A stretch of 64,000 nt of DNA from an uncultured Candidatus Saccharibacteria bacterium. GTDB taxonomy: Bacteria; Patescibacteriota; Saccharimonadia; CAILAD01; BJGX01. This document shows, piece by piece, positions 30,669 through 50,386 of the stretch. The stretch covers positions 6,224 to 70,223 of the forward strand of contig CAZKFZ010000005.1 in the NCBI GenBank assembly GCA_964552475.1, given 5' to 3'. The notes under the pieces were generated by a model, which was not told where the DNA came from, made no database searches, and saw nothing but the letters and a program-made list of their open reading frames with translations. The position numbers were made by a program, and so were the translations under genes. Within the stretch, counting starts at the first letter, position 1, and every line of letters begins with the position of its first letter.

Positions 30669-31091
30669 TTATCGCTTAGAGAACTGTGGTGCTTTACGAG
30701 CTTTCTTAAGTCCGGGCTTTTTACGCTCTTTAACGCGAGCATCTCTGGTAAGATAGCCTTCTCGGCGCAAACTCACCTTAAAATCTTCGCTCATACCTAA
30801 TAGAGCGCGGGCTATACCTAATCTAATAGCTTCGGCTTGTCCCTTCAAACCACCTCCAGAGACTCGAGCATTAATATCTACAGTCTTGTCTTTTGCTAAC
30901 AGCACAAGCGGAGATCTCAGTAGTTCGTCATAGGTATCGGTACCAAAGTATTCTTGTGGTGTTTTATCGTTAACTGTAATAACGCCTTTGCCAATAGTTA
31001 GCCTGATAGTTGCAATGGAACGTTTACGACGTCCTACTCCAGGATAATACTGCTGCTTTTTTGCGGGTGACTTGGTTGTACTTTCGGCCAC
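30669..31091 (-). CDS. rpsI: 30S ribosomal protein S9
   Basis: GGGLKGQAEAIRLGIARALL and C-terminal KKARKAPQFSKR. Confidence 0.93.
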   Translation of the reverse strand: MAESTTKSPAKKQQYYPGVGRRKRSIATIRLTIGKGVITVNDKTPQEYFGTDTYDELLRSPLVLLAKDKTVDINARVSGGGLKGQAEAIRLGIARALLGMSEDFKVSLRREGYLTRDARVKERKKPGLKKARKAPQFSKR

Positions 31092-31528
31092 TATTTTTTC
31101 TCCGTTTCAATTAATGTAGGGTTTTGAGAGGCATGAGGATGTTCGGCGGTAGCATAAACTTTAAGGTTTTTAAGCATTTGTGCCTGCAATTTATTCTTGG
31201 GCAACATACCTGCAACAGCGTGCTCAATAACAGTATTAGGTTCTTTTACCAACTGGTCACGCAAGCTTATTTCACGTATACCACCTGGATATCCTGTGTG
31301 ATGATAGTATATTTTATCAGTTAATTTTTGACCAGTTACTTCTATCTTGGATGAATTAATCACAATCACTACATCGCCACCCACAACGTGGGGGGTATAG
31401 CTTGGTTTGTTTTTACCCATTAGTAATCTTGCAATTTGAGTAGCTACCCTACCTAAAGTTTGGCCCTTAGCATCAATAATATACCAATCTTGAGTAGCCT
31501 CAGCGGTTTTTAGACTATATGTTTTCAT
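31091..31528 (-). CDS. rplM: 50S ribosomal protein L13
   Basis: WYIIDAKGQTLGRVATQIARLLMGK. Confidence 0.93.
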   Translation of the reverse strand: MKTYSLKTAEATQDWYIIDAKGQTLGRVATQIARLLMGKNKPSYTPHVVGGDVVIVINSSKIEVTGQKLTDKIYYHHTGYPGGIREISLRDQLVKEPNTVIEHAVAGMLPKNKLQAQMLKNLKVYATAEHPHASQNPTLIETEKK

Positions 31529-32067
31529 TTTGCCACCCTTCTAGCCGACTTTGGCTTTTGTGCGGTGGAGTTTTTAACTCCGGTAATCTTGGTTTTTACG
31601 ATATCTCCCTTTTTTGCAGATTTATTAACTTTTGATTCATCCGTAGATTTAGTAGATTTTTCTGGTTTTTTTGAATCTTTTGATTTTGTTTGTTCAGAAG
31701 TATAGTTTTCATCTAGCACTAGTTCAATAACTGCCATAGCTGCGCCATCACCCAGTCTATTGCCGGTCTTAATAATTCGAGTATAGCCTCCTTGTCGAGA
31801 CGAGAAGCCATTTACTAGATCGTAATTGAGTTTCTGGGCGGCAACAGGATTAATGGTTTCGGCAAGGATCATTCTATATGCGGGAAGGGTTTGTTTTTTT
31901 GCCAAAGTAACTTGACGTTCAAAATATGGAGCAAGTTCTTTAGCTTTGGCTTGAGTAGTCTCGAGTCTCTCATACAGAATTAAACTGTCAAGAAGGCCAC
32001 GCAAAAGAGCCCGGCGTGGGCCGGCTGCGCGAGAAAGTTTTCGTCCTGCGTATGCGTGGCGATGCAT
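31525..32067 (-). CDS. rplQ: 50S ribosomal protein L17 with ~60-aa Lys/Ser-rich C-terminal extension
   Basis: N-terminal 120 aa are L17-like (RKLSRAAGPRRALLRGL...GGYTRIIKTGNRLGDGA); followed by a tail rich in K/S/T. Confidence 0.9.
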   Translation of the reverse strand: MHRHAYAGRKLSRAAGPRRALLRGLLDSLILYERLETTQAKAKELAPYFERQVTLAKKQTLPAYRMILAETINPVAAQKLNYDLVNGFSSRQGGYTRIIKTGNRLGDGAAMAVIELVLDENYTSEQTKSKDSKKPEKSTKSTDESKVNKSAKKGDIVKTKITGVKNSTAQKPKSARRVAK

Positions 32068-32073
32068 TTTATT

Positions 32074-33024
32074 CTACTCCGTTTCCTTTACGACGTTGTT
32101 CACACCTAGCTCTTCTAGTTTCTCAACTACCTCTTCGTAGGCCTTTTGTCCAAAACCTTTTAGCTCTTTTAGATCACTAGCCTTGAGTTCCATTATTTCT
32201 TTTATAGTTTTAATATCATTATTCATTAATGCATTGGTTGTGCGTGGGCTAAAATTGACTTCATCTATAGATATTTGCGCCATGTCAGCTTCTTGTTTTT
32301 CTGCAGCCGTCACAATACCACCCGTTCCAACACTCACAACATCATGACCAGCTAATACCTGGAAGTGACCTACTAGAATCTCGGCAGCTTGTGCTACAGC
32401 CTCTGAAGGGGCCATAGTGCCGTCTGTTTCTACATCTAAAATTAATTTGTCAAAGTTGGTCATTTGTCCTACGCGAGTGTTTTCTATATTGTATCTCACC
32501 CTTTTTATTGGTGTATATATGGCATCTACAGCTATCATACCCACTGGTAGCTTTTCGCTAGCCCGACTTTCTACTGCAACGTATCCTCTGCCTTTTTCTA
32601 TCTGTAGTTCCATCTCTAACTTACTCTTGCTATTATCTAGGTTGGCAATTACTTGATCTGGATTGGCAACTTCTACTCCAGATACCGTCTTAATATCAGC
32701 AGCAGTAACCTCGCCTTTTCCAGTTTTTTTGAGACTCACTATAACTTTGTCTTCATTAACATTAGCAAATCTAACCTGTTTAAGGTTTAAAATAATTTCT
32801 ATAACATCTTCGCGCACTCCAGCAACAGCGGTAAATTCGTGATTAGCTCCTTCTATTTTTACTCCAGTAATGGCGCTGCCGGCTAAGCTAGAAAGTAAAA
32901 CACGGCGCATTGAGTTGCCAAGAGTCATACCGTAGCCAGGGTAAAGTGGCTCAACTTCAAAGGTTGAGTTGTTTTGGCTGGTACTTACTTCTTTTATTTC
33001 TGGTAGATTGATATCGTATAACAC
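32074..33024 (-). CDS. rpoA: DNA-directed RNA polymerase alpha subunit
   Basis: 316 aa with an alpha-NTD (PLYPGYGMTLGNSMRRVLLSS) and an alpha-CTD (helix-hairpin-helix) at the C-terminus; conserved position. Confidence 0.93.
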   Translation of the reverse strand: MLYDINLPEIKEVSTSQNNSTFEVEPLYPGYGMTLGNSMRRVLLSSLAGSAITGVKIEGANHEFTAVAGVREDVIEIILNLKQVRFANVNEDKVIVSLKKTGKGEVTAADIKTVSGVEVANPDQVIANLDNSKSKLEMELQIEKGRGYVAVESRASEKLPVGMIAVDAIYTPIKRVRYNIENTRVGQMTNFDKLILDVETDGTMAPSEAVAQAAEILVGHFQVLAGHDVVSVGTGGIVTAAEKQEADMAQISIDEVNFSPRTTNALMNNDIKTIKEIMELKASDLKELKGFGQKAYEEVVEKLEELGVNNVVKETE

Positions 33025-33054
33025 TTGGTATCTCCTTATAAAGATATTAATTAA

Positions 33055-33669
33055 TTAACGTGAATAATACTCAATGATAAGCTGTTCTTCTATAACTTCT
33101 GGTATTTCTTCTCTTAGTGGCACTCCTGTAACAGTAGCGGTCATTTTCTTGGTGTCAAAACTCAACCAACTTGTTGAATTACTGTTTGCGTTCAGGCTTT
33201 CTGAGATAGATTTGAAATATTCATTTTTTAAGCTGGCTGCTCTTACAGATATAACATCTTTTGGGTTAACTTGAATTGAAGGAATATCGACTTTTTTGCC
33301 ATTTAGAGTGATGTGGGCGTGAGTAACTAGCTGTCTAGCTGATTGACGGGATGGAGCGAGTCCTACGCGATAAACTACATTATCTAGTCTTTGTTCTAGC
33401 AATACTAATAGATTCTCGCCACTCACTCCGGGCATTCTCTCAGCGGAATGAACATAATTTCTAAATTGACGCTCCAATATACCATAGGTTCTTTTTACTT
33501 TTTGTTTCTCACGTAGCTGTAATGAATAATCACTTGGTTTACTACGCCTACTTTGGCCGTGTTGACCAGGTCCATAACTTCGCTTAGTCATAACCTTCAC
33601 GGCCTTTGGGTGTAATTCTATACCTTCTCGACGTGATAATTTAACAATAGGGGTAAGATTTCGTGCCAT
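33055..33669 (-). CDS. rpsD: 30S ribosomal protein S4
   Basis: MARNLTPIVKLSRREG... and S4-domain VVYRVGLAPSRQSARQLVTHAHITLNGKKVDIPS. Confidence 0.93.
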   Translation of the reverse strand: MARNLTPIVKLSRREGIELHPKAVKVMTKRSYGPGQHGQSRRSKPSDYSLQLREKQKVKRTYGILERQFRNYVHSAERMPGVSGENLLVLLEQRLDNVVYRVGLAPSRQSARQLVTHAHITLNGKKVDIPSIQVNPKDVISVRAASLKNEYFKSISESLNANSNSTSWLSFDTKKMTATVTGVPLREEIPEVIEEQLIIEYYSR

Positions 33670-33671
33670 CG

Positions 33672-34064
33672 CTAAACCCTACGTGCCTTTCTAGGTCGAC
33701 AACCATTATGTGGAATACCGGTAACATCTTTTATGCCCACAATAGTAATACCTGAGGCCATTAGTGCTCTTACTGCCGATTCTCTACCAGATCCAATCCC
33801 TTTAATAATCACATTAACTTTGGCTAGACCAAACTCTTTGGCTTTTTCAATAGCTTTTTCGGCGGCAATTTGTGCAGCGTAAGGTGTACTCTTACGACTA
33901 CCTTTAAACCCAGCTGAGCCAGATGATTTCCAGGCAACTACGTTACCGCCGTCGTCGGTAATACTCACGATAGTGTTATTGAAAGTCGCTTGTACATGAA
34001 CAGTACCTTTAGGTAGGTTGCGCTTCGTCTTTTTTCGTCTGGTTTTTTTCTTTAATTCTGCCAT
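33672..34064 (-). CDS. rpsK: 30S ribosomal protein S11
   Basis: [18 protein letters not shown]...[11 protein letters not shown]. Confidence 0.93.
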
Positions 34065-34089
34065 ATTATTCTCTATATTGGGTTAAATT

Positions 34090-34476
34090 TTAAGTTTTTG
34101 CAGCAGCCTTTTTGCGTCCTGAGCCAACCGTTACCTTCTTGCCACGCTTGGTTCGGGCATTTGTTTTGGTTCTTTGTCCGCGAACCGGTAAACTAGCACT
34201 ATGTCTTAGCCCACGGTAGGCTTTAATATCTTTAAGTCGTTTAATATTACCGCTCACTTCTCTTGCTAGGTCAGCTTCAACTTTTAAGTTTTTGTCTATG
34301 TACTCCCTAATGCTTGATAAGTCTTTTTCATTCAGTTCTTTCACTCTGGTGTTAGGGTCTATCTTAACACTGCTGAGCAATGCGCGAGAAGCAGACAAAC
34401 CAATACCGTAAATATAAGTCAGTGCAACCTCTACTCTTTTCTCATTAGGTATATTTGTGCCAGCTATTCTAGCCAC
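34090..34476 (-). CDS. rpsM: 30S ribosomal protein S13
   Basis: [26 protein letters not shown]. Confidence 0.93.
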
Positions 34477-34478
34477 CG

Positions 34479-34592
34479 CTAACCTTGCCTCTGTTTATGT
34501 TTAGGATTTTCACAAATAACCGACACTCTACCACGTCGTTTAACGATCTTGCATTTCACACACATTTTTTTTACTCCTGCTCGTACTTTCAT
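34479..34592 (-). CDS. rpmJ: 50S ribosomal protein L36 (not listed in the ORF track; 37 aa)
   Basis: Manual translation of the minus strand gives [37 protein letters not shown]. Its stop lies 3 nt before the rpsM start. Confidence 0.85.
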
Positions 34593-34610
34593 TTGTATGA
34601 ATCCTTTAAT

Positions 34611-34832
34611 TTATCTATGCCGATATGTTATGCGACCTTTATCTAGGTCGTAGGGGGTCATTTCGATGGTAACTTTATCTCCAGGTAAAATCTTGATGTA
34701 GTGCATACGCATTTTACCAGATATATGCGCCAATATTTCGTGGCCGTTCTCTAGCTGCACTCTAAAATTAGCATTCGGCAATGCCTCTAGTATAGTGCCT
34801 TCAACTTCAATTACTTCCTTTGTTTGTGTCAT
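34611..34832 (-). CDS. infA: Translation initiation factor IF-1
   Basis: S1-like 73-aa protein: [43 protein letters not shown]. Confidence 0.9.
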
Positions 34833-34919
34833 GAGAAAAATCGTATCAGGTTAGTATTATAGACGTTACAGGTTGAAATGTAAAGACCTTTTTTCATCTT
34901 TTTTAGTAAAACCTTCAAC

Positions 34920-36236
34920 TTAATATTGCTCGTAGGTAGCCATTAATGCTCTAGATTCTATTTGTTTAATCGTCTCTATAATAACAGCCACAATAATAAG
35001 TAGTCCGGTACCACCAATACTTAAGAAATTGGATGTTTTAAAGATACTTTCTACGATAAACGGAAAAACTGCCAATAGTCCAAGAGCAAGGGCACCAAAT
35101 AAAGTCAGTCGATTAATAATTTTCTTCAAATACTTACTAGTCTCTACACCTGGTCTAACCCCAGGAATAAAACCACCTTGTTTTTGGAGATTTTCGGCAA
35201 TTTCGTTAGGTTTAAATACAATCGCTGTATAAAAATAAGTAAAGGCCACAACCAATACGAAATATGTAATCGTATATACTGGTTTATTAGGCTGAAAAGC
35301 AGTTTGCATCCACTGGGCCATATGCGCAAGCCAAGCCGATTTAGCATTCGAGAAAAGTTGTCCTATAAAACCTGGAATTGAAAGGAAGGCAAGGGCAAAT
35401 ATAATTGGTATTACCCCCGCCGTGATGAGTCGAATAGGTAAATGCGTATCTACCCCGCCATAGCGTGAATCCCCAGCAATACGCCTGGCGTAAGATATGG
35501 GGATGTTGCGTTGACCTTCATTGAGTAAAACTACAAACAATACCACCGCAACGATTATTACCGCAAAAAATATTAATGTAAAAATTTTAGCACTGTCTGC
35601 CTGTGCCAAACTAAATTGTTGGGCTAATTGAGTAGGTAGATGTGAGACTATGCCGGCTAGAATAAGAATAGATATACCGTTTCCAATACCACGGTCAGTA
35701 ATAATCTCACCAAGCCACATTAGAAGCATTGATCCCCCAGTAATTGCTGCGATCATTAACACCCACTGCGCAATAGTTGGTTGACCAATCAAATCAACGC
35801 CAGCAATCTGTTGAGACAAAGTTCGGGTTAGGGTGATCATAGCAACAGATTGTATTATTGCGAGAGGTAGAGTTAGGAGCCTAGTGTAATAATTAAGCTT
35901 ATTCCTGCCAGCCTCACCTTCTTTTTGTAAAGCTTCTAGCTGTGGTACCACCTGGCTAAGTAGCTGAATAATAATTGAGGCATTAATATATGGGCCAAGC
36001 CCCATTAGTAATATAGAAAAATTACTAAGTGCACCGCCCGTAAATAGATTGGCAAAACCTAATAATGGGTTACTCTGAAAAAGTCTCAATAAAAAACTTT
36101 GGAGCTTAGCAGTATCGGGTACAGGCACTGGAACATGGGAAAGCAGACTATAAACAGCCAAAATCGCCAATACAATAATGATCCGCCTGCGCAAATCTTT
36201 ATTTTTATACATCTGCCTAAACAGTGCGCTATTCAC
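34920..36236 (-). CDS. secY: Preprotein translocase subunit SecY
   Basis: 438 aa, 10 TM, conserved GGTGLLI and GIFLG-type segments; conserved position after rplO. Confidence 0.93.
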   Translation of the reverse strand: MNSALFRQMYKNKDLRRRIIIVLAILAVYSLLSHVPVPVPDTAKLQSFLLRLFQSNPLLGFANLFTGGALSNFSILLMGLGPYINASIIIQLLSQVVPQLEALQKEGEAGRNKLNYYTRLLTLPLAIIQSVAMITLTRTLSQQIAGVDLIGQPTIAQWVLMIAAITGGSMLLMWLGEIITDRGIGNGISILILAGIVSHLPTQLAQQFSLAQADSAKIFTLIFFAVIIVAVVLFVVLLNEGQRNIPISYARRIAGDSRYGGVDTHLPIRLITAGVIPIIFALAFLSIPGFIGQLFSNAKSAWLAHMAQWMQTAFQPNKPVYTITYFVLVVAFTYFYTAIVFKPNEIAENLQKQGGFIPGVRPGVETSKYLKKIINRLTLFGALALGLLAVFPFIVESIFKTSNFLSIGGTGLLIIVAVIIETIKQIESRALMATYEQY

Positions 36237-36249
36237 CCGTCAACCCTCC

Positions 36250-36780
36250 TTATTTTTTAACTTTATTAGATTTTTCTTTGGGCTTGTTTATATTTTTATC
36301 AGTAGTTTCGGGATTAGGCTGGTGACTAGGCTTGTTTGGTCTACTATCTAGTAAAATAACCTCGCCGCCAGCATCCTGCACGAGTTTAAGAGCGCTCTTG
36401 CTAGATGCATCAATAGTAAGTTTGATTTTTTTGGTTATCTTACCCGAGCCAAGCAGTAGTTTTGCCGGTAACTTCGAATTGATTAGACCAGCTTTTTGTA
36501 GGGTGTCTTTGTCTATACTAGCAGATCCAATTTTTTCTAGCTGGTCTAGTGTAACAACTTGGTAGGTGGTGTGGTTTCTAGCTTTAAAACCACGGTTTTT
36601 TGGCAAACGCATACTTAGCTTGGTTTGGCCGCCTTCAAAGCCAATTTTTACTCCACCGCCGGTACGTGAGTTCTGTCCTTTTGTGCCTCTACCAGAAGTC
36701 TTTCCGCTACCACTACCTATACCGCGACCTAATCTTTTGGTGTCGGGATATTTAACTGCTTTTATCTCATGAAGCTTCAT
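36250..36780 (-). CDS. rplO: 50S ribosomal protein L15 with Lys-rich C-terminal tail
   Basis: MKLHEIKAV...GRGIGSGSGKTSGRG. Confidence 0.9.
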   Translation of the reverse strand: MKLHEIKAVKYPDTKRLGRGIGSGSGKTSGRGTKGQNSRTGGGVKIGFEGGQTKLSMRLPKNRGFKARNHTTYQVVTLDQLEKIGSASIDKDTLQKAGLINSKLPAKLLLGSGKITKKIKLTIDASSKSALKLVQDAGGEVILLDSRPNKPSHQPNPETTDKNINKPKEKSNKVKK

Positions 36781-37271
36781 TATTTTTTCACCTCTTTAGC
36801 GGTCTTGCCTATCTTAGCACTGTCGGCCTGAAGAGATTGAAGTGCCATAATAGTTGCATAGGCATTGTTTATCTTATTACTAGAACCAAGCGACTTAGTT
36901 AGAATATCTTTTACGCCTGCTACCTCTAGTATAGAGCGTACTGTACCGCCAGCTATCACACCAGTACCGGGAGCTGCTGGCTTTAAAAATACCACTGCGC
37001 CATCAGACCGTACCTGAACTTGGTGTGGAATAGTATTATTTACTAGAGGGAAGGAAATTAGAGCTTTTTTGGCGGTCGCAACTGCTTTTACTATTGAGGT
37101 TGGGGCATCTCCGCCTTTTCCTACGCCAACACCTACACTACCCTTACCGTTACCTACAACCACTGTTGCGCGAAAACGAAATCGGCGTCCACCCTTAACA
37201 ACTCTAGTTACTCTATCTAAAGCAATAATCTTTTCTTCATATTCACTTGGTGTATCTTGAAAATCTCTCAT
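36780..37271 (-). CDS. rpsE: 30S ribosomal protein S5. It directly abuts rplO, so no L30 gene lies between them
   Basis: [31 protein letters not shown]. Confidence 0.93.
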
Positions 37272-37281
37272 ATTTATTCCT

Positions 37282-37638
37282 TTAAAATTTTAACCCACCT
37301 TTGCGTGCAGCCTCAGCAAGCTTCTTTACTCGCCCATGATAAGTTCGCCAACCCCGGTCAAAAACTACCGAGCTTACTTTTTTACTATTGGCCTGTTTGG
37401 CTAGCTCTGTACCTACCCACCCAGCTTTATCTGACATAGATTTTTTAGCAATAGTCTTATTGCCTACGGTTGAAACATACAACAAACTCTTGCTAGATTC
37501 ATCATCGATAAGTTGGGCGGTGACATTAATGTTTGTTATGCTTACACTTAATCGTGGTCGCAAAGCAGTGCCACTTATTCTTGATCTTACACGATTTTTA
37601 GTTAATTTTCTTCTGTTAGATAATATTGATTTCTTCAT
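37282..37638 (-). CDS. rplR: 50S ribosomal protein L18
   Basis: RPRLSVSITNINVTAQLIDD... C-terminal YHGRVKKLAEAARKGGLKF. Confidence 0.93.
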   Translation of the reverse strand: MKKSILSNRRKLTKNRVRSRISGTALRPRLSVSITNINVTAQLIDDESSKSLLYVSTVGNKTIAKKSMSDKAGWVGTELAKQANSKKVSSVVFDRGWRTYHGRVKKLAEAARKGGLKF

Positions 37639-37643
37639 AATGT

Positions 37644-38189
37644 TTATCCTGCCGTCTTAGCTGCTGTTTTACCAGCTTTTCTACGAACTACTTCGTCTTG
37701 ATATCTTATGCCCTTACCCTTGTATGGTTCTGGCTTCTTAAATTCTCGAATAGCTGCAGCCACTGAGCCTACTTTTTGCTTATCTACTCCACTAACCGTA
37801 ATAGTGGTCTGCTCTACCTTGAGATCAATGCCTTCTGGGGTAATGTATTCTACAGGGTGAGAAAAACCAAGGTTCAGAACTAATTTATTACCCTGCAATG
37901 AAACTCTAAATCCAACCCCATTCACCTCAAGAGTCTTACTAAATCCTTCTGAAACTCCTTTAATTGTATTGCCAATTAAAGTTCTCTGTAGACCCCAAAA
38001 CTGTGCTAGCTCTTTACTGTCGTCTTTTGGTGTAATTTCAATTCTATTCTCTTTTTGGACTACATTAAAGCCATCCATTATTTGAACTGCTAGCTCGCCT
38101 TTAGGCCCTTTTGCTACAAAACTCTGGTCTTCTATTTCGATATTTGTACCATTCGGTACTTCTACTGGTAATTTTCCAATTCTACTCAT
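37644..38189 (-). CDS. rplF: 50S ribosomal protein L6
   Basis: MSRIGKLPVEVPNGTNIEI and a two-domain L6 fold signature. Confidence 0.93.
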   Translation of the reverse strand: MSRIGKLPVEVPNGTNIEIEDQSFVAKGPKGELAVQIMDGFNVVQKENRIEITPKDDSKELAQFWGLQRTLIGNTIKGVSEGFSKTLEVNGVGFRVSLQGNKLVLNLGFSHPVEYITPEGIDLKVEQTTITVSGVDKQKVGSVAAAIREFKKPEPYKGKGIRYQDEVVRRKAGKTAAKTAG

Positions 38190-38196
38190 GATACAC

Positions 38197-38586
38197 CTAA
38201 TAAACCGTACATATTAATTCGCCACCGATACCTTTGTTGCGTGCTTCTTTGTCGGTCATAATACCTGACGGAGTTGATATAATAACAATTCCACGGCCAC
38301 CTAGTACATAAGGGATGTCGGTCTTTGGAGCATACATACGTCGTCCTGGTTTACTTACCCGAGTAATTGTATTGATCTTGCGGTTAGATCCGCTAATCTG
38401 TAGCTCTAAAGATGCAAAAGCACCATTCTTCTGTTCTTTTACTCCAGCAATAAAGCCTTGGTCTTTAAGGATTTGTGCAATTGCAAGTTTGATTTTTGAG
38501 TAGGGAACAGTAACGGTTGATTTATTTGCACTCAAACCGTTGCGTATTCTTGTTAGCATGTCTGCGATTGGATCTGTTGTCATCAT
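38197..38586 (-). CDS. rpsH: 30S ribosomal protein S8
   Basis: DPIADMLTRIRNG; C-terminal GGELICTVY. Confidence 0.93.
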   Translation of the reverse strand: MMTTDPIADMLTRIRNGLSANKSTVTVPYSKIKLAIAQILKDQGFIAGVKEQKNGAFASLELQISGSNRKINTITRVSKPGRRMYAPKTDIPYVLGGRGIVIISTPSGIMTDKEARNKGIGGELICTVY

Positions 38587-38600
38587 ATATTCCTTAATTA

Positions 38601-38870
38601 TTACCAGCTAGATTTTGTTACACCAGGAATTCTTCCTTTGGAGGCCTGCTCTCGAAAAGTGATTCTGCTTAGGCCAAAATCCCGAATAAAAGCTCTGGGC
38701 CTACCGGTAATCTCGCATCTATTATGCAATCTTACTGGGTTGGCGTTTCTAGGAAGCTTAGCCAAACCTTCAATATCGCCGGCAGCCTTTAGCTGAGCTC
38801 TCTTGCTTGCATACTTAGCAGCAAGTTTTTGTCTTTTCAATTCACGTTGTACAAGTGCTTTTCTGGCCAT
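38601..38870 (-). CDS. rpsN: 30S ribosomal protein S14 (long, non-zinc type)
   Basis: [20 protein letters not shown]...[21 protein letters not shown]. The true start is at MARKAL; the ORF track extends upstream to 38900. Confidence 0.9.
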
Positions 38871-38871
38871 A

Positions 38872-39417
38872 TTACTTTCCTTTCTCCAATGGTAATCCAA
38901 GTTTTCTTAATAATGCTTGGGCATGATCTTTATTATTTGTTGAGGTAACTATAGTTGCCTGTAGTCCATGGGTAGCGCTTGCATCTTCAAAGTTAATTTC
39001 TGGAAACACGGTTTGGTCACTAAAGCCAATACTATAGTTGCCCTGAGGATCAAAGGCTTTTAGTGGTAGTCCGCGAAAATCGCGCATTCTAGGTATTACC
39101 ACCGCCACCATTCTGTCTAAAAAATCCCACATCCTCTCTCCTCGCAAAGTCACTTTCACGCCAATAGGGTTGCCTTCTCTAAGCTTGTAAGCTGCAATAC
39201 TATGACGAGCTTTAGTAACAACTGGTTTTTGACCACTAACTTTTGTTAGAGTTGAGGTTGCCGCTTCTAGGTGTTTACTGTCTTGAGTAGCTCTACCTAC
39301 TCCAGCGTTTATAACAATCTTAGTAATTGCTGGCACCTGATGAATATTGTCTAATTCAAGCTCAGACTTTAGCTCACTCTTGATATTCTTTTGGTATTTT
39401 TCTTGTAATCGATTCAT
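38872..39417 (-). CDS. rplE: 50S ribosomal protein L5
   Basis: [20 protein letters not shown]...[15 protein letters not shown]. Confidence 0.93.
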
Positions 39418-39785
39418 TTTTTAACCTCTTTTGGCGACTTTTTACTGTCGTTCTTGGTGGTTTTTGACTTGGTAGTATTCTTAAACTTAGAGACTTTATA
39501 TACCCGTTCTTTTTTGTTATTTTTACCTACTTTATAACCAATTCTTGCAGGGCGTCCCGATGAAGGATCTATAACCATTAACTTACTAGCGATTATAGGT
39601 TTCGTTAACTCTACAATACCGCCTTTAGGGTTTTTCTGAGATGGTTTGGTGTGTCGCTTTACAACATTCACGCCCTCTACTACCACCTGGGAAGTCTTAG
39701 GTAAAACAGCTAAAACTTCGCCCTTCTTGCCACGGTCTTTGCCCTGAATAACCATTACTTGGTCTTTCTTTTTCAGTTTCATACT
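39414..39785 (-). CDS. rplX: 50S ribosomal protein L24 with Lys-rich C-terminal extension
   Basis: MKLKKKDQVMVIQGKDRGKKGEVLAV (KOW). The ORF track starts at 39803. Confidence 0.9.
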   Translation of the reverse strand, partial: SMKLKKKDQVMVIQGKDRGKKGEVLAVLPKTSQVVVEGVNVVKRHTKPSQKNPKGGIVELTKPIIASKLMVIDPSSGRPARIGYKVGKNNKKERVYKVSKFKNTTKSKTTKNDSKKSPKEVKK

Positions 39786-40152
39786 AGAGCACCTCCGGAG
39801 CAAGAGAGATAATCTTCATGTAGCCGTGCTCTCTTAGTTCTCTTGTTACAGGACCAAAAATTCGTGTTCCAATTGGCAGTTTTGCTTTATCAATAATAAC
39901 TGCAGCGTTTTCATCAAAGCAGATTGCCGAACCGTCGGCTCTATTAATAGTTTTTTTAGTTCTAACTATAACAGCTCGAACAACCTCTTTTTTCTTAACC
40001 GCTCCGTTTGGTGTAGCAGTTTTTACAGAAGCAACAATAATATCACCAACTCTTGCGTAGCGTCGTTTACTGCCACCAAGTACCTTGATGCAGTAAATTT
40101 CTTTTGCTCCTGTGTTGTCAGCAACCCTTAGTCGGGTTTCGGCTTGTATCAT
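39784..40152 (-). CDS. rplN: 50S ribosomal protein L14
   Basis: [39 protein letters not shown]. Confidence 0.93.
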
Positions 40153-40400
40153 TTTTTCTCCTTACGCTCCTGCAATAGTTTGCTCACCTCAAAGTGTTTA
40201 TCGCGACTAATTGGTCGGGTTTCGATAATTTCAACCATATCACCTGGTTTATACTGGTTTTTTTCATCATGTGCTTTAAAAGTATTAGTAACCTTGTATC
40301 GCTTCTTATAAATTGGGTGTGTTTTATAACGTTCTACAGAAACCACAACGGTTTTATCCATTTTATTACTTACGACTTTACCGGTAATTGTGCGGCTCAT
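40149..40400 (-). CDS. rpsQ: 30S ribosomal protein S17
   Basis: [33 protein letters not shown]. Confidence 0.93.
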
Positions 40401-40597
40401 TTGGATTCTCCTTTAGTGTTTTCACCCAAAACAGTTAAAATTCTAGCTATATCCTTTTTTATAGCTGCTATCTGCTTAACATTCTTTACTTCCTTTGTTC
40501 GATATTCTACGGATACAGCTGTGAGCTGGCTTCTCAGCTCGTCAAGGTTTTTTGTAAGTTCTTTTTCTGATTTTGCTCGCATATCTTTAGCCTTCAT
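40397..40597 (-). CDS. rpmC: 50S ribosomal protein L29
   Basis: [25 protein letters not shown]. An alternative start is at 40612. Confidence 0.88.
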
Positions 40598-41018
40598 GAC
40601 TTTCTCCTGCATGACCTTTAACTAAAAACTTTGTGCGTACAGGTAACTTCATAGCACCCAAACGCATAGCTTCTTTTGCGGTTGCTTCATCTACGCCATC
40701 CATTTCAAATAAGATTTTGCCAGCCTGTACTCTAGCCACGTAGTGATCTAGGGCGCCTTTACCAGAACCCATCCTAACTTCAGCGGGCTTACGAGTTACA
40801 GGAGTGTGCGGGAATATTCGTATCCATATTTTACCACCACGCTTTACATAACGAGTCATTGCACGTCTAGCGGCTTCTATCTGTCGAGATGTTACTCTTT
40901 CATTATCCATGCTTTTTAAGCCGTATCGACCAAAGTTAATATCAGAACCTCTAGACGAGACTCCTCTATTTCGACCCTTCATTGCCTTTCTGTACTTGGT
41001 TTTTCTTGGTAACAACAT
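40587..41018 (-). CDS. rplP: 50S ribosomal protein L16
   Basis: [19 protein letters not shown]...[22 protein letters not shown]. Confidence 0.93.
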
Positions 41019-41020
41019 AA

Positions 41021-41638
41021 CTATCCTTTATAAATCCAGACTTTTACACCGATAATTCCATAGGTAGTTTGAGCACTAGCTGTACCATAATCAATATTAG
41101 CCTTAATAGTATGAAGAGGAATACTACCTTGAGATGTGCTCTCGCGTCGAGCCATTTCTGCGCCATTGAGTCTACCAGATACTGTAATCTTTGCTCCTAG
41201 CATACCAGCCTTCATAGCGTTCTCACACGCCCCCTTAATGACACGTCTAAAGGCCATTCTACGCTCTAGTTGGGATGCGACATTTTCAGCAATCAGTTGA
41301 GCGTGAGTTTCGGGATTTTTCATCTCCTCAATATTAAGCTTCAACTCTTCTTTGGTGAGCTTAGTTAATTCCTTTTTCAAACCTTCTACACCAACTCCAC
41401 CACGCCCAATTACTACACCTGGCTTACTAGTAAATATAGTTACAACTAGTTGACCTGTAGATCTTTCTATCTCTACTTTACCAACACCAGCTCTAAATCC
41501 TAGCTTTTTAGAAATAGTGTCACGTATTTTAATATCAGCAATTAATTTATCGCGGAATTGTTTACCACCAAACCACTTACTTTCCCAGTCCTTGGTTGCC
41601 GGTAGTCTTAGGCTAATTGGATTTACTTTTTGTCCCAT
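41021..41638 (-). CDS. rpsC: 30S ribosomal protein S3
   Basis: [12 protein letters not shown]...KH domain...[23 protein letters not shown]. Confidence 0.93.
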
Positions 41639-42042
41639 TATTTTTTCACCTCAGTTTTACTTGCTGATTTATTATTAGTGTTGTTTTTATCAAGCTTAGT
41701 CTTAGAATTTGGTTGGTCGCTAACTACAATAGTAAGATGTGCTCTTTGATGCTCAATCGGTGCTGTCATTCCACGTGATCTTGGTCGCCAACGCTTAAGC
41801 TTGGTAGCCTGATCTACTCTTATTTCATCTATAACTAGCTGGGTGATATTTGCACTATTGTTATTTGTAGCATTTGCAGAGGCGCTCTTTAGTACATCAA
41901 AAGCCATGGTTGCACCTTTTTGAGGCTTTGCCGCTAACTGCTGTAAGGCAACGTTAACCGACTGACCAGACATACCATCTATAGAAACTCGTAGTTTTTG
42001 AGCTGATATTTTTAAATTTCGTCCAATAGCATGAACTCTCAT
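41638..42042 (-). CDS. rplV: 50S ribosomal protein L22 with short Lys/Asn-rich C-terminal tail
   Basis: RVHAIGRNLKISAQKLRVSIDGMSGQSVNVA. Confidence 0.9.
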   Translation of the reverse strand: MRVHAIGRNLKISAQKLRVSIDGMSGQSVNVALQQLAAKPQKGATMAFDVLKSASANATNNNSANITQLVIDEIRVDQATKLKRWRPRSRGMTAPIEHQRAHLTIVVSDQPNSKTKLDKNNTNNKSASKTEVKK

Positions 42043-42323
42043 TACTTGCCTCCCTCAGCCTTAGCGAGTTTGCCGCCGTGGCCTTTGAATTTACGAGTTG
42101 GAGAAAATTCTCCAAGCTTATGACCTACCATATTTTCAGTTATCAAGACTGGCACAAAAGTCTTACCGTTGTGTACAGCGATAGTTCTACCAACCATTTC
42201 TGGAGAAATAGTACTAGAGCGAGCCCAGGTTTTTATAATAGTTTTGTCTGTAGGGCTAAGCGCTACTACTTTTTTCAGTAGTTTTGCATCAATAAATAAA
42301 CCTTTTTTGGCTGATCGACTCAT
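42042..42323 (-). CDS. rpsS: 30S ribosomal protein S19
   Basis: [19 protein letters not shown]...[39 protein letters not shown]. Confidence 0.93.
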
Positions 42324-43153
42324 CGTTTACCTTTCTTTCTTGTTCGTACTATCATAGCGTTAGAGTATTTACGGCGTCTGGTTTTTAGACCAAGAGCAGG
42401 TTTACCCCAGGGTGTTTTAGGGTGTTTTAGACCAATTGGGCTACCACCTTCACCACCACCGTGTGGGTGATCTACTGGATTCATAGCCTTACCACGTACT
42501 TGCGGTCTACGACCCATATTACGCTTTCTACCAGCACTTCCAATCTTGATATTTTGGTGGTCTATGTTACCAACCTGACCTAGTGTAGCATGACAATCTC
42601 GGTGCACCAAACGAACTTCACCCGAAGGCAGTTTAACCTGTACAAATTCACCTTCTTTAGCAGCCAGTTGAGCTCTAGCACCTGCCGAACGAGCCATTTG
42701 TGCACCACCGCCAAGTTTTAGCTCAATATTACATATCACTGAACCAACCGGTATGTTACGTAGCGGCAGTCTATTGCCGGCTTTTACTTCCACATCTTTA
42801 CCAGAATTAATTTTTTTACCTACTCGCATAGTTGTGGTTGCTAATATATAAACCTTACTACCATCGGCTAGCTTAAGTAATGCAAGGTTAGCACTTCTGT
42901 TGGGATCGTATTCGATTGCAACTATTTCGGCGCCAGTGGTGTTGTCGAGCTTAAAGTCAACCATACGAATATGGCGTTTTACTCCACCACCTCTGTGTCG
43001 AATAGTGATCTTGCCTTGATTATTTCGGCCAGATTTCTGTTTTCGCTTAACAAGTAATGACTTTTCTGGGCGCTTTTTAGTAAGTATTGAAAAGTCAGCA
43101 ACACTCATGTTGCGTCTTGCTGAAGTATTTTGCTTTAATACTCTAGTTGCCAT
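42320..43153 (-). CDS. rplB: 50S ribosomal protein L2
   Basis: [19 protein letters not shown]...[13 protein letters not shown]. Confidence 0.95.
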
Positions 43154-43434
43154 TATTTACTTTCCTCAAACACGGCTATTTTCTGGCCTTTTTTAATTGT
43201 TACGTAAGCTCTTTTTTTATCTGTTCGCTTACCAGTAACACCCTTAAATTTCTTAATCTTACCTTTTAATACAGAAATTCTAACTTTTTCAACTTCTACC
43301 TTGAAGTTTTTGGCCACACTATCTGCTACCATAAGCTTGTTGGCATTTTTAGGTACTTCAAACATATAAGTTTTAGTAGATGCCAGGTGCATGCTTTTTT
43401 CTGTAATTATGGGTTTTAACACGATTTGACTCAT
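43153..43434 (-). CDS. rplW: 50S ribosomal protein L23
   Basis: ILKPIITEKSMHLASTKTYMFEVPKNANK. Confidence 0.9.
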   Translation of the reverse strand: MSQIVLKPIITEKSMHLASTKTYMFEVPKNANKLMVADSVAKNFKVEVEKVRISVLKGKIKKFKGVTGKRTDKKRAYVTIKKGQKIAVFEESK

Positions 43435-44060
43435 GATTTTTTACCCCCCAGCCACTTATCGAGCTCGTCTAAAGCAGGTTTTTCAAAAATAATACAATCA
43501 GCCTGCAAGATATCGTAGCTTCTTAGTTGGTTGTATTTTACCAACAACACCCCTGGTATATTTGCGACGCTTTTAATAAAATTGTCATCTACGCCAGCGT
43601 GCACTAATAACACATTGCCGTTTGCATCTAGCTTATCGAGTAGTTGATCGGCCAATTTAGTTTTGGGTTCTGACACCACAAATTTCTCAATCACCTTAGT
43701 GATAGAGCTCTGAGAAGACAAGGCCATTTTAATACTTGTACGAATCATGCCTTTTGGCATATCTTTTTGATAATTTTGTAAACCGGTTGGCCCGTGAGCT
43801 ACGCCACCATGTCGCCAAATATTTACTCTAGTTGAACCAAATCTTGCTCGACCAGTACCTTTTTGTCGCCATGGCTTTCTACCGCCGCCACGAACCTCAC
43901 CCCTGGTAAGTGTTTTGGCGTTGCTTTGTCGCAAGTTAGCTTGTGCTCTTACTACAGCTTGTTTTAGTAGATCCTGACTTATCTTAACCTCAAAGATAGC
44001 CTTTGATAGTGCGGTTTCACTAGATTTGTTTCCGGTGCGTGTATAGGTGATGGCTTTCAT
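43431..44060 (-). CDS. rplD: 50S ribosomal protein L4
   Basis: RQSNAKTLTRGEVRGGGRKPWRQKGTGRARFGS. Confidence 0.93.
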   Translation of the reverse strand: MKAITYTRTGNKSSETALSKAIFEVKISQDLLKQAVVRAQANLRQSNAKTLTRGEVRGGGRKPWRQKGTGRARFGSTRVNIWRHGGVAHGPTGLQNYQKDMPKGMIRTSIKMALSSQSSITKVIEKFVVSEPKTKLADQLLDKLDANGNVLLVHAGVDDNFIKSVANIPGVLLVKYNQLRSYDILQADCIIFEKPALDELDKWLGGKKS

Positions 44061-44689
44061 TTTACTATCCCCTGCACGCGTACCAGACCCTTTTTTGGTC
44101 CAGGCACAGCGCCTTTAATACCTAGAATGCTATTTTTGCTATCTATAAATACTACTTTTAGATTCTTAACTGTCACAGTATCGCGGCCCATACGTCCTGA
44201 CATTTTTTGACCTTTAAATACATGTTGTGGATAACCAGCACCAATAGAACCTGGTGCTCTATAATTGTGTGATCCGTGTGTTTTTGGCCCTCTAGAAAAG
44301 TTATGACGCTTGATAGTGCCGGCAAAGCCCTTACCTTTGCTAACTGCCTGTACAGTCACAGAGTCGCCTACTTCAAAGACATCGGTTTTTATAGAGTCAC
44401 CAACCGAGGGAAAATCTGATGTTTCACTAGTACCTTCTGCCAGATTAATACGAAATTCTGAGATATACTTGCTTGATGCTTTAGCCTTTTTTAGGTGACC
44501 AGCTTGTGGCTTGGCTATTTTTTTGGTTTCGCCCAGGCCCAATTGAACAGCGTTGTATCCGTCGGTGGTGTGGTCTTTTATTTGTGTAACAACACATTTC
44601 TCGGCTTCTAATAGCGTAACCGAACTCACCCGTCCTTTTTCGTCGAACAGTTGGGTCATTCCTAATTTTGTTGCTAGCAAAGCTTTCAT
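44057..44689 (-). CDS. rplC: 50S ribosomal protein L3
   Basis: MKALLATKLGMTQLFDEKG... The true start is at MKALLA (44689); the ORF track runs upstream to 44770. Confidence 0.9.
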   Translation of the reverse strand: MKALLATKLGMTQLFDEKGRVSSVTLLEAEKCVVTQIKDHTTDGYNAVQLGLGETKKIAKPQAGHLKKAKASSKYISEFRINLAEGTSETSDFPSVGDSIKTDVFEVGDSVTVQAVSKGKGFAGTIKRHNFSRGPKTHGSHNYRAPGSIGAGYPQHVFKGQKMSGRMGRDTVTVKNLKVVFIDSKNSILGIKGAVPGPKKGLVRVQGIVK

Positions 44690-44802
44690 AAAATATATCT
44701 TTTTAAAAAATAATAGCTGCGAAACAATTGGTTTCCAACACCTGTTGGACCTTAATGTTTTGCAGTTCACTCAGACCAAGAGCATTTTTATTAGTCGCGT
44801 AT

Positions 44803-44833
44803 AAGTGTATCAGATTACTATACCTGGTGTCAA
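44803..44833 (-). promoter_or_regulatory. Candidate sigma-70 promoter for rplC and downstream genes: -35 TTGACA, 19-nt spacer, -10 TACACT (minus strand)
   Basis: Plus strand carries tgtcaa at 44828-44833 and agtgta at 44803-44808. The same TTGACA/TACACT pair is found upstream of rpoB. Confidence 0.4.
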
Positions 44834-44906
44834 CACCCTGGTACTAGGGTTTGATATGTGATGATGTATTTTAGAAAATTTGCTATAAATTTACGTAACA
44901 AAAAGA

Positions 44907-44932
44907 AATACACCTCAAAAACAAGGTGTATT
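44907..44932. terminator. Intrinsic terminator 3' of the DUF4870 gene
   Basis: aatacacct caaaaacaa aggtgtatt: 9-bp stem. On the minus strand it is followed by a T-rich tract (ttctttttgtt). Confidence 0.5.
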
Positions 44933-44985
44933 ATCTAGATATATCACGCCTGAAATCTGTTTTTTATCAACTTTTAGCTAAAAAC

Positions 44986-45369
44986 TTACTTAATTAAGTG
45001 AATTCCACCAATAATAGGTAGTGGGGTTTTCTTCTTACCTACAGCGTTAACTATACCTATAATAGCTAGTACAAGTACGCCTAGGTAAACGAGCCACATT
45101 AACATCGAGATAATGCTATACAGTCCAAAGCCACCGTATCCTACTGAAGCAATAAAGATCATACCAAGAACAAAATTGACTACCCATAGCACTATCTCTA
45201 ATGCAAAGAGGGTAAGACCTTGTTTGGCGTGGAACTGGGCAAATTCTGAATCTTTTGCTGCTAGTAGAGGTATTAGGCAGAGTATACCTAGGTATGATAG
45301 CACTCCCATTAATACGTCGTTGTCACCACTTGATTTGGTTTTAGTTGCTGGTTGCTTTTCTTCGGGCAT
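44986..45369 (-). CDS. DUF4870-like small membrane protein inserted between rpsJ and rplC
   Basis: LMGVLSYLGILCLIPLLAAKDSEFAQFHAKQGLTLF resembles the DUF4870 signature; 3 TM. Confidence 0.55.
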   Translation of the reverse strand: MPEEKQPATKTKSSGDNDVLMGVLSYLGILCLIPLLAAKDSEFAQFHAKQGLTLFALEIVLWVVNFVLGMIFIASVGYGGFGLYSIISMLMWLVYLGVLVLAIIGIVNAVGKKKTPLPIIGGIHLIK

Positions 45370-45466
45370 GATTACTCCTTATTTATTGAATTGTTTACTT
45401 ATGGCTATTGTAAACCATTGGCTACTCTCACTGCAAGTACTTATGGTTATTTTTATGGTCTGTATC

Positions 45467-45494
45467 AAAAAAGCCCCTTTACTGGGGCTTTTTT
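45467..45494. terminator. Intrinsic terminator immediately 3' of rpsJ
   Basis: aaaaaagcccc tttact ggggctttttt: GC stem with poly-A/T flanks, 4 nt after the rpsJ stop. Confidence 0.7.
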
Positions 45495-45497
45495 GAT

Positions 45498-45836
45498 TTA
45501 CATTTTTATTTCAATATCTACACCAGCCGGCAAACTAAGATTCATGAGGTTATCAATTGTCTTAGGCGTAGGCTCGGTAATATCTATAAGACGCTTGTGA
45601 GTACGCATTTCAAATTGCTCACGTGAGGTTTTATACACATGGGGGCTTTTTACTACGGTGTATTTGCGCTTGTTGGTCGGTAGCGGAATAGGGCCGGCTA
45701 CATTGGCGTTGGTACGCACAGCTACATCTATTATTTGCTTAGTAGACTGGTCTATCACTTTATTGTCATAGGCTTTTAGTTTAATGCGTATGCGTTGCTT
45801 AGTCGATACTTCTGCTTCTGGTGTTGTAGGTGCCAT
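45498..45836 (-). CDS. rpsJ: 30S ribosomal protein S10
   Basis: [41 protein letters not shown]. Confidence 0.93.
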
Positions 45837-45856
45837 AGTTTATTTATTACTTTGAA

Positions 45857-47041
45857 TTACTTGGTAATTTTAGTTACTACTCCGGCGCCAACAGTCTTAC
45901 CACCTTCACGAATTGCGAATCGCAGACCTTCGTCCATTGCGATTGGGGCAAGTAGTTTTACCTTGATACTAATATTATCTCCAGGCATAACCATCTCGGT
46001 ACCTTCTGGTAGTTCTACTTCGCCAGTAACGTCGGTAGTTCGGAAGTAGAATTGTGGTTTGTAACCCTTAAAGAATGGGGTGTGACGTCCACCTTCGTCT
46101 TTTTTAAGCACGTATATTTCGGCATCAAATTCAGTATGTGGTTTTACACTACCTGGTTTGGCTAGAACCTGACCACGTTCAATATCGTCGCGTTCTACTC
46201 CACGTAGTAATACACCAACATTGTCGCCTGCTTGACCTTCGTCGAGCATCTTTTTAAACATCTCTACGCCAGTTACGACTGTTTTGGTAGTATCTTTAAT
46301 ACCAACAATTTCAACTTCTTCGTTAACATTTACCTTACCTTGCTCAATACGACCAGTTGCTACTGTACCACGGCCTTTAATAGAGAAAACGTCTTCTATT
46401 GGCATAAGGAATGGTTTGTCTAGCTCACGCTTTGGTTCCGGAATATAGTCATCCATAGCTTTTACAAGCTCCATAATAGCTTCTTCGTTAGGACCGTCAC
46501 CCTCTAGTGCCTTAAGAGCAGAACCTTTTACAATAGGGGCATCTTTGTCGTATTCGTATTTTTCTAAGAGTTCGCGAATTTCAACTTCTACAAGCTCAGC
46601 AAGTTCTGGGTCGGCTTGATCCATTTTGTTCATAAATACGATAATTTTTGGTACACCAACCTGTTTGGCCAAGAGTACGTGCTCGCGAGTTTGAGGCATT
46701 GGGCCGTCAGCAGCACTTACTACCAATATTGCTCCGTCAATCTGAGCTGCACCAGTAATCATGTTCTTTACGTAGTCAGCGTGACCAGGCATATCTACGT
46801 GAGCGTAGTGGCGTTTTTCACTTTCGTATTCTTCGTGTGAGGTTGCAATAGTAATACCACGCTCTCGCTCTTCTGGAGCGTTGTCGATAGTAGCATAGTC
46901 AACTGGTTTGTTAATATCGCTAGGAAGTTTTTTTGATAGTACAGTTGTAATTGCTGCAGTTAGGGTAGTTTTACCATGGTCTACGTGACCCATAGTTCCT
47001 ACGTTTACGTGTGGTTTATCGCGCTTATATGATTCGGCCAT
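45857..47041 (-). CDS. tuf: Elongation factor Tu
   Basis: [36 protein letters not shown]; 394 aa. Confidence 0.97.
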
Positions 47042-50380: not shown

Positions 50381-50386
50381 CCTTAG

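Follow-up and report, generated by a model that had tools for sequence, protein, structure and literature searches.

In Bacillus-type genomes, the spc-alpha junction is arranged as rpsE-rpmD-rplO-secY-adk-map-infA-rpmJ. Escherichia coli also lacks adk and map, together with infA, at the secY junction, and the departure of adk-map from the cluster is therefore common and not specific to the Candidate Phyla Radiation (CPR; Patescibacteria). Loss of uL30 (L30, encoded by rpmD) across this group is ascribed to Brown et al. (2015), as cited by Tsurumaki et al. (2022; bioRxiv 10.1101/2022.01.07.475337). A survey of 69 complete CPR genomes detected no L30, and in a closed Saccharibacteria genome it is the one ribosomal protein missing from the full set. 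The bL9 gene (rplI), which normally lies outside the cluster described here, has also been reported absent from Saccharibacteria. In the cultivated Saccharibacterium Southlakia epibionticum ML1, adk (SEML1_0172) and map (SEML1_0173) lie together beside ftsA/ftsZ, about 260 kb from the ribosomal cluster, and both are essential by Tn-seq (Wang et al., 2023, Cell, PMC10633639).

We analyzed a 64-kb stretch of DNA, referred to here as the window, in which the minus strand between positions 30669 and 47041 carries tuf-rpsJ-[DUF4870 ORF]-rplCDWB-rpsS-rplV-rpsC-rplP-rpmC-rpsQ-rplNXE-rpsNH-rplFR-rpsE-rplO-secY-infA-rpmJ-rpsMKD-rpoA-rplQ-rplM-rpsI (Table 1). The genes and coordinates named in the original prediction were all recovered with NCBIfam equivalog models, and the small unannotated ORF that had been proposed as rpmJ is genuine. 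As the genes from rpsJ to rplQ are collinear on one strand, they constitute an S10-spc-alpha supercluster. With a probability of roughly 0.93, we regard the region as the fused str/S10-spc-alpha ribosomal-protein supercluster of Candidatus Saccharibacteria (TM7), with a gene order typical of the class, an L30 gene lost CPR-wide, and an adk-map pair that has been relocated. The cluster is ordinary for Saccharibacteria, and both the absence of L30 and the direct secY-infA junction are already documented traits of the lineage.

Table 1. Features of the ribosomal-protein cluster and its immediate surroundings, in window coordinates.
Feature	Position	Strand	Support
fusA, just upstream of tuf	47180-49300		identified from translation only
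tuf (EF-Tu), 394 aa	45857-47041	-	translation; 99% identical to L001 fragment
rpsJ (S10)	45498-45836	-	translation; tblastn matches at S10 position of related loci
terminator-like palindromic hairpin, 14-bp stem, directly after rpsJ	45464-45497	.	consensus scan only
DUF4870 membrane ORF, 127 aa, between rpsJ and rplC	44986-45369	-	Pfam PF09685, 27.1 bits (cutoff 25)
rplC (L3), ATG start	44057-44689	-	TIGR03625, 234 bits
rplD (L4)	43431-44060	-	TIGR03953, 193 bits
rplW (L23)	43153-43434	-	NF004363, 88 bits
rplB (L2)	42320-43153	-	TIGR01171, 364 bits
rpsS (S19)	42042-42323	-	TIGR01050, 131 bits
rplV (L22), C-terminal tail	41638-42042	-	TIGR01044, 81 bits
rpsC (S3)	41021-41638	-	TIGR01009, 261 bits
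rplP (L16)	40587-41018	-	TIGR01164, 190 bits
rpmC (L29)	40397-40612	-	TIGR00012, 50 bits
rpsQ (S17)	40149-40400	-	TIGR03635, 109 bits
rplN (L14)	39784-40152	-	TIGR01067, 182 bits
rplX (L24), ATG start	39414-39782	-	TIGR01079, 107 bits
rplE (L5)	38872-39417	-	NF000585, 247 bits
rpsN (S14), 89-aa long form, one Cys, non-zinc	38601-38870	-	NF006477, 112 bits
rpsH (S8)	38197-38586	-	NF001109, 161 bits
rplF (L6)	37644-38189	-	TIGR03654, 228 bits
rplR (L18)	37282-37638	-	TIGR00060, 91 bits
rpsE (S5)	36780-37271	-	TIGR01021, 188.8 bits
rplO (L15), 176 aa	36250-36780	-	TIGR01071, 124.3 bits, residues 12-141
secY	34920-36236	-	TIGR00967, 404 bits
secY-infA spacer, 87 nt	34833-34919	-	sequence read
infA (IF-1)	34611-34832	-	TIGR00008, 125 bits
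rpmJ (L36), 37 aa, CxxC...C...H motif	34479-34592	-	TIGR01022, 71.9 bits (cutoff 22.7); motif from sequence
rpsM (S13)	34090-34476	-	TIGR03631, 160 bits
rpsK (S11)	33672-34064	-	NF003698, 185 bits
rpsD (S4)	33055-33669	-	NF003717, 267 bits
rpoA	32074-33024	-	NF003519, 350 bits
rplQ (L17), 180 aa, Lys-rich C-terminal tail	31525-32067	-	TIGR00059, 98.7 bits, residues 9-117
rplM (L13)	31091-31528	-	TIGR01066, 190 bits
rpsI (S9)	30669-31091	-	NF001099, 160 bits

Between rpsJ and rplQ, neighboring genes overlap or are separated by no more than 30 nt, with the exceptions of the two gaps flanking the DUF4870 ORF (128 nt on the rpsJ side and 296 nt on the rplC side) and the 87 nt between secY and infA. 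The longest ORFs of rpsN, rplX, and rplC begin at upstream TTG or GTG codons, but the profile matches favor internal ATG starts at 38870, 39782, and 44689, respectively. Rfam at gathering thresholds detected only four tRNAs in the 64-kb window; the cluster gave no match to a ribosomal-protein leader, and the window contains no rRNA gene.

Neither adk nor map lies in the secY-infA spacer, as had been claimed originally, and similarity to Adk or Map is absent from every frame of the 64-kb window. A tblastn search over the 64 kb with three L30 proteins and the E. coli Adk and Map proteins gave nothing better than E=0.26. The queries for Adk and Map were validated by detecting both genes in other Patescibacteria loci, whereas those for L30 have no positive control among the examined loci because the gene is present in none of them. 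None of 55 Saccharibacteria loci carries adk or map after secY (±10 kb around secY), whereas 23 of the 25 other Patescibacteria loci keep one or both directly after secY. Among the Patescibacteria loci compared, direct joining of secY to infA is a Saccharibacteria-specific feature, and the original view that the absence of adk and map is a CPR trait has to be abandoned. Nor is it evidence of gene loss: the complete Saccharibacteria genome has both genes elsewhere, and their absence at the junction very probably reflects relocation. The spacer measures 5-188 nt in 44 of 53 measurable Saccharibacteria loci and contains insertions of 0.5-2 kb in the other nine. Divergent copies of adk or map inside these insertions were considered and rejected, as the ORFs found there match neither query.

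It is very unlikely that the source organism truly lacks adk and map owing to extreme genome reduction and reliance on a host. Many biosynthetic genes are missing from CPR bacteria, and neither gene was found in the window or near secY in any of the 55 Saccharibacteria loci, but the cultivated S. epibionticum, which shares the cluster order, has retained both as essential genes at another site. Methionine aminopeptidase is essential in bacteria and present in nearly all of them, which also counts against a true absence. With relocation as the preferred reading, the pair would lie elsewhere on the chromosome in the Saccharibacteria lineage, and relatives and the literature suggest the same for the source genome; in the single complete genome consulted, that of S. 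epibionticum, this site is the one beside ftsA-ftsZ. Relocation of the pair would leave secY followed by a short spacer with a promoter-like element. Such an element, TTTACA-17-TATAAT, is present at 34884-34856 (11 of 12, consensus match only) and would serve infA-rpmJ-rpsM and the genes that follow. Judging from sequence, both this putative promoter and the candidate terminator after rpsJ may be functional.

On the minus strand, the rpsE/rplO junction reads ...AAAAAATAATGAAGCTT..., with one base common to the TAA stop and the ATG start (TAATG). This 1-nt overlap leaves no room for rpmD (~180 nt), and a small L30 HMM run against all six-frame segments of the window gave a best E-value of 18, which upholds the earlier statement that rpsE abuts rplO without an L30 gene. 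S5 adjoins L15 in all 77 Patescibacteria loci carrying both genes, and 76 of the spacings fall between -4 and +41 nt; the outlying value, at L049, is artefactual and stems from the start codon chosen. We also considered whether L30 might be fused to S5 or to L15 and rejected this, as S5 is of normal length and the C-terminal tail of L15 (~35 aa) is low-complexity, Lys/Pro-rich, and not L30-like. The absence of rpmD would follow from the absence of L30 in the CPR lineage as a whole; S5 and L15 would thereby have become directly adjacent, and the TAATG overlap probably couples their translation.

It is likewise very unlikely that L30 has been retained outside the spc cluster. The region examined spans 64 kb, and ribosomal-protein genes can move, a relocation for which the adk-map pair serves as an example. 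However, neither the 69 complete CPR genomes nor the closed Saccharibacteria genome has L30, the S. epibionticum gene tables do not contain it, and a six-frame search of ~1.3 Mb of Patescibacteria loci revealed no L30-like segment (best E-value 2.5). Relatives and the literature thus suggest that the entire source genome lacks L30. A metagenome assembly is the probable source of the window, and collapsed or chimeric joins could in principle have deleted genes at the two junctions. We nevertheless consider such assembly or binning artefacts highly improbable, as 76 independent assemblies have these junctions too, no reading frame is interrupted, and the overlap is precise. In addition, two independent short-read assemblies of unrelated origin (L081 and L082) have an S5-L15 junction identical to that of the window and encode the same L15 protein.

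The original prediction took the missing L30 as the mark of a CPR-type lineage. It is indeed a documented CPR hallmark, but it is not diagnostic by itself, as it also occurs in some non-CPR phyla. The lineage itself is confirmed by the protein comparisons. SecY of the window is 99.5% identical to that of a GTDB representative titled Candidatus Saccharibacteria (a MAG, assembly CAYZYH01), and its neighbors range from 60% to 99.5% identity. Of the best 40 SecY loci, most bear Saccharibacteria or Saccharimonadia titles and a few have generic or other CPR titles, these titles being submitter labels of which some are clearly wrong (several "Gammaproteobacteria" loci have CPR-type clusters). A placement by concatenated proteins, as had been proposed for a check, gave the same result: in a simple neighbor-joining tree of 10 proteins (65 loci and 1870 columns; unbootstrapped and without a non-CPR outgroup), the window stands next to L001 within the Saccharibacteria clade. 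Furthermore, the L1 ORF (52-981, 309 aa) has its Ribosomal_L1 domain beginning at residue 106, and such an N-terminal extension, here of ~105 aa, has been reported for Saccharibacteria at ~40-130 aa, which we count as a Saccharibacteria feature. These SecY matches, the tree, and the L1 extension effectively refute an independent loss of L30 in a non-CPR bacterium, of the kind seen in some symbionts.

The S14 protein had been described as the long, non-zinc-binding form, which proved correct. With 89 aa and one Cys, it belongs to the long (C-, non-zinc) type of ~89-101 aa without CxxC...CxxC; its score is 112 bits against the long-form model NF006477 (cutoff 77), whereas at 72.5 bits it falls short of the cutoff of 77 set for the type Z model. 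Most other CPR loci encode a 61-aa four-Cys form, and the long S14 is therefore a trait within Saccharibacteria. The long one-Cys form occurs in the clade of the window and in a deep Saccharimonadales clade, the short four-Cys form in a nested sister clade within Saccharimonadia, and the S14 of L058 is long yet has four Cys. We would give even odds to a scenario in which a single ancient move of the adk-map pair made the direct secY-infA junction a synapomorphy of all Saccharimonadia, with the S14 form switching more than once within the class. If true, the S14 changes would offer a modest example of how ribosomal proteins switch form in CPR.

The DUF4870 ORF is kept at its position between rpsJ and rplC in 10 Saccharibacteria loci, and in S. 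epibionticum the same slot is occupied by SEML1_0475, a hypothetical, non-essential gene (Wang et al., 2023, PMC10633639). Elsewhere in the window, purD and carotenoid genes are somewhat atypical for Saccharibacteria with reduced biosynthesis; gene content of this type has been reported for freshwater Saccharibacteria.

The missing L30 and the protein similarities rightly mark the window as Saccharibacteria/CPR, which aids the reading of its remaining genes but has little importance beyond identifying the source. That CPR bacteria have lost L30 has been part of textbook knowledge since 2015, and a published complete Saccharibacteria genome has the same gene order. The split between Saccharibacteria (secY-infA) and other Patescibacteria (secY-adk-map) could, however, be of some use as a rapid synteny check on MAGs with wrong labels.

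Compared with the Bacillus-type junction, the window has the shared genes in the same order and an equally compact, operon-like layout, but is without rpmD, adk, and map. With rpsE and rplO adjacent, it adds a further example of the CPR-wide uL30 loss already published and differs from it in nothing. Other Patescibacteria (L042-L080; Parcubacteria, Magasanikbacteria, Moranbacteria, and others) likewise have no L30 and an S5 gene adjoining L15, but for the most part have adk and/or map after secY (23 of 25) and the 61-aa four-Cys S14, two features that the window and the majority of Saccharibacteria lack. By comparison of gene tables, the closest agreement is with S. epibionticum ML1 (PMC10633639), whose table lists neither L30 nor L9 and places neither adk nor map between SecY and IF-1, and whose S5 and L15 genes are 1 nt apart. 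Its SecY has 543 aa versus 438 aa in the window, and its ORF between S10 and L3 encodes 106 aa without a Pfam match versus the 127-aa DUF4870 protein, but the order tuf-S10-small hypothetical ORF-L3 ... L18-S5-L15-SecY-IF1-L36-S13-S11 is shared.

The minus-strand genes from tuf to rpsI form a single long, densely packed ribosomal-protein cluster, in which each gene was named by NCBIfam equivalog models and neighboring genes mostly overlap by 1-4 nt or lie no more than 30 nt apart. The ORF following infA, which the original prediction had read as rpmJ, is a genuine L36 gene (71.9 bits, cutoff 22.7). The C-terminal tails of L17, L15, L24, and L22 are Lys-rich, and L17 gives a partial match, below cutoff, to the NCBIfam "sunset domain variant" model. 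The str operon is split, with about 3.5 kb between fusA and rpsL-rpsG that contain a NUDIX hydrolase gene and three ORFs without Pfam match (two of 139-173 aa, one of 342 aa), some of them on the opposite strand.

Coordinates of features in the window
Feature	Position	Strand	Remark
L1 gene	52-981		309 aa
Phytoene/squalene synthase	3979-4815		carotenoid set, 3979-10797
Polyprenyl synthetase	4819-5895		carotenoid set
Amine-oxidase-type desaturase	5899-7404		carotenoid set
UbiA prenyltransferase fused to GT2 glycosyltransferase	8761-10797		carotenoid set
Type IV pilus set	16623-23316	-	
ORF among pilus genes	18138-19925		595 aa, no Pfam match
PF04240 carotenoid biosynthesis protein	23416-24273		distant from other carotenoid genes
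purD	25096-26379	-	full-length (GARS_N, GARS_A, GARS_C)
ARAGORN "tRNA-Stop (tta)"	28688-28759	+	probably false positive
Ribosomal-protein cluster	30669-47041	-	
Cluster order, part 1		-	tuf, rpsJ, 127-aa DUF4870 membrane ORF
Cluster order, part 2		-	rplC, rplD, rplW, rplB, rpsS, rplV, rpsC, rplP, rpmC, rpsQ
Cluster order, part 3		-	rplN, rplX, rplE, rpsN, rpsH, rplF, rplR, rpsE, rplO
Cluster order, part 4		-	secY, infA, rpmJ, rpsM, rpsK, rpsD, rpoA, rplQ, rplM, rpsI
L17 gene	31525-32067		
rpmJ	34479-34592		
Putative promoter	34884-34856	-	secY-infA spacer
L15 gene	36250-36780		
L24 gene	39414-39782		
L22 gene	41638-42042		
Promoter-like site	44833-44804		between second hairpin and rplC
Second hairpin	44932-44907		with T-run, 3' of DUF4870 ORF
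DUF4870 gene	44986-45369	-	
First hairpin	45464-45497		14-bp stem, 3' of rpsJ
fusA	47180-49300		directly upstream of cluster; translation only
Region between fusA and rpsL	49301-52830		
rpsL-rpsG	52831-53739		

The SecY of the window was scanned against one genome per GTDB species, which returned 80 loci (L001-L080). The top match, L001, has 99.5% identity and bears the title uncultured Candidatus Saccharibacteria. Approximately 40 matches follow at 93-60% identity, most of them under the names Saccharibacteria, Saccharimonadia, or Saccharimonadales and a few under generic names or those of other CPR groups; the remaining loci, at about 50%, belong to a deeper group of Saccharimonadales or to other Patescibacteria. 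In a neighbor-joining tree of concatenated SecY, S5, L18, L6, S8, L5, L14, S3, L16, and L2 (1870 columns, 65 loci), a check that had been named beforehand, the window stands beside L001 inside a clade holding L001-L039. The sister of this clade is another Saccharimonadales clade (L041, L044-L060), and the other Patescibacteria are separate from the two. Having neither bootstrap support nor a non-CPR outgroup, the tree gives a position within CPR and is not proof of CPR monophyly. SecY identity and tree position thus bear out the proposed CPR-type lineage. An independent signature agreeing with the placement in Saccharibacteria is the L1 protein, which has about 105 additional N-terminal residues, an extension reported for this group.

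Ten GTDB-representative MAGs among the 80 loci are titled "uncultured Gammaproteobacteria" (L042, L043, L053, L063, L065, L071, L072, L074, L077, L078); they show CPR-type spc clusters, with S5 adjoining L15 and without L30, and those taken into the tree cluster with Patescibacteria. L067, titled Bdellovibrionales, shows secY and then map only. The submitter taxonomy of these MAGs is probably wrong. In many of these loci, infA, rpmJ, and rpsM were not found 3' of map within 10 kb.

In most bacteria, rpmD is located exactly at the rpsE/rplO junction. In the window these genes abut, as had been predicted, in the sequence TAATG, whose one base common to stop and start leaves no room for rpmD. In tblastn, three L30 proteins gave no match below E = 0.26 across the 64 kb; these queries had no positive control, as the gene is absent from every locus surveyed. 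A small L30 HMM, run unfiltered on the full set of 30,114 six-frame segments from the window plus the 80 related loci, reached a lowest E-value of 2.5 overall and 18 within the window. Among the 77 loci carrying both genes, the spacing from S5 stop to L15 start was -4 to +41 nt in 76, and the sole outlier, L049, is an artefact of start-codon choice. This survey agrees with the published CPR pattern: L30 loss has been documented since 2015 (Brown et al., 2015, as cited in Tsurumaki et al., 2022), and in a closed Saccharibacteria genome L30 is the one ribosomal protein missing. The absence of L30 is therefore consistent with CPR, by literature and survey alike, but it is not diagnostic alone as originally implied, and the lineage assignment rests chiefly on protein similarities. 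E. coli stays viable when its L30 gene is deleted, and this dispensability fits the repeated evolutionary loss of L30.

The secY-infA spacer is indeed 87 nt long. E. coli Adk and Map queries, validated by clear matches in other Patescibacteria loci, gave no tblastn match below E = 0.26 across the 64 kb, and Pfam showed no adenylate kinase or M24 peptidase among the ORFs checked in the remainder of the window. None of 55 Saccharibacteria loci (members of the two clades, plus loci closely resembling them) had an Adk or Map match within 10 kb of secY. The spacer, measurable in 53 of them, was 5-188 nt in 44; the other nine have insertions of 0.5-2 kb, whose ORFs did not match the Adk or Map queries. 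In contrast, adk and/or map immediately follow secY in 23 of 25 other Patescibacteria loci, and one of the two exceptions, L069, ends 0.8 kb past secY. Two loci titled Saccharibacteria do contain adk-map: L068, which lies outside the Saccharibacteria clade and adjoins a Nealsonbacteria locus in the tree, and L047, which was too short for the tree. The direct secY-infA junction is thus a synteny trait at the level of Saccharibacteria, and the view that absence of adk and map is a CPR trait does not hold.

Regarding expression, S5 and L15 may be translationally coupled, as the TAATG overlap suggests. The secY-infA spacer contains an 11/12 match to TTGACA-17-TATAAT, a putative promoter that could drive infA-rpmJ-rpsM and subsequent genes as a separate unit. 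The two hairpins and the promoter-like site around the DUF4870 gene, which is inserted between rpsJ and rplC, indicate that S10 may be transcriptionally separate from the remaining S10 operon. All these calls are consensus-pattern matches, with scan counts little above shuffled expectation. The DUF4870 gene is kept at this position in a subset of Saccharibacteria (L001, L002, L005, L008, L016, L018-L020, L022, and L024); in many of the remaining Saccharibacteria loci, over 1.4 kb of sequence 5' of rplC holds no rpsJ.

S14 is the long form, as predicted (89 aa from ATG, one cysteine); only the long-form model scores it above cutoff. Across L001-L080, the window's clade and the deep Saccharimonadales clade share this form. 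A nested clade (L026-L034, L037-L039) has the 61-aa four-Cys type Z form, as do all the other Patescibacteria loci; an 89-aa protein with four Cys is seen in L058, and L057 has no Cys. The S14 form varies within Saccharibacteria.

Outside the cluster, the solitary purD adjoins a tRNA cluster; genes for making purines de novo are unusual among CPR bacteria. The pilus set includes a pilin with N-terminal methylation motif, a T2SSF platform protein, a T2SSE ATPase, and several ORFs without Pfam match. The tRNA-Stop call sits within a pseudouridine synthase gene on the opposite strand and is not confirmed by Rfam. The carotenoid set resembles lyeJ/crtD/cruF, the bacterioruberin genes reported for Lake Baikal freshwater Saccharibacteria and Patescibacteria, in whose MAGs cruF stands apart from the other carotenoid genes, as the PF04240 gene does here. 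L022 is one of the MAGs with bacterioruberin genes (Baikal-deep-G192).

The cluster's exact gene order is already published for Southlakia epibionticum ML1, a cultivated Saccharibacterium with a complete genome, which likewise has tuf, S10, a hypothetical protein, L3 ... S5, L15, SecY, IF-1, L36, and S13; the hypothetical gene in the rpsJ-rplC slot, where the window has the DUF4870 ORF, is non-essential. Its gene tables have no L30 or L9 entry (Wang et al., 2023, PMC10633639). SEML1_0172, a nucleoside monophosphate kinase with a Pfam adenylate kinase domain, and SEML1_0173, a type I methionyl aminopeptidase, form a neighboring pair at about 170 kb, just ahead of ftsA and ftsZ and about 260 kb from the ribosomal cluster, and both are essential by Tn-seq (PMC10633639). 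In this one checkable genome, the absence of adk and map from the cluster is a relocation of essential genes and not a loss, and by analogy with S. epibionticum we infer that the pair would lie elsewhere in the window's own genome and that L30 would be missing from it.
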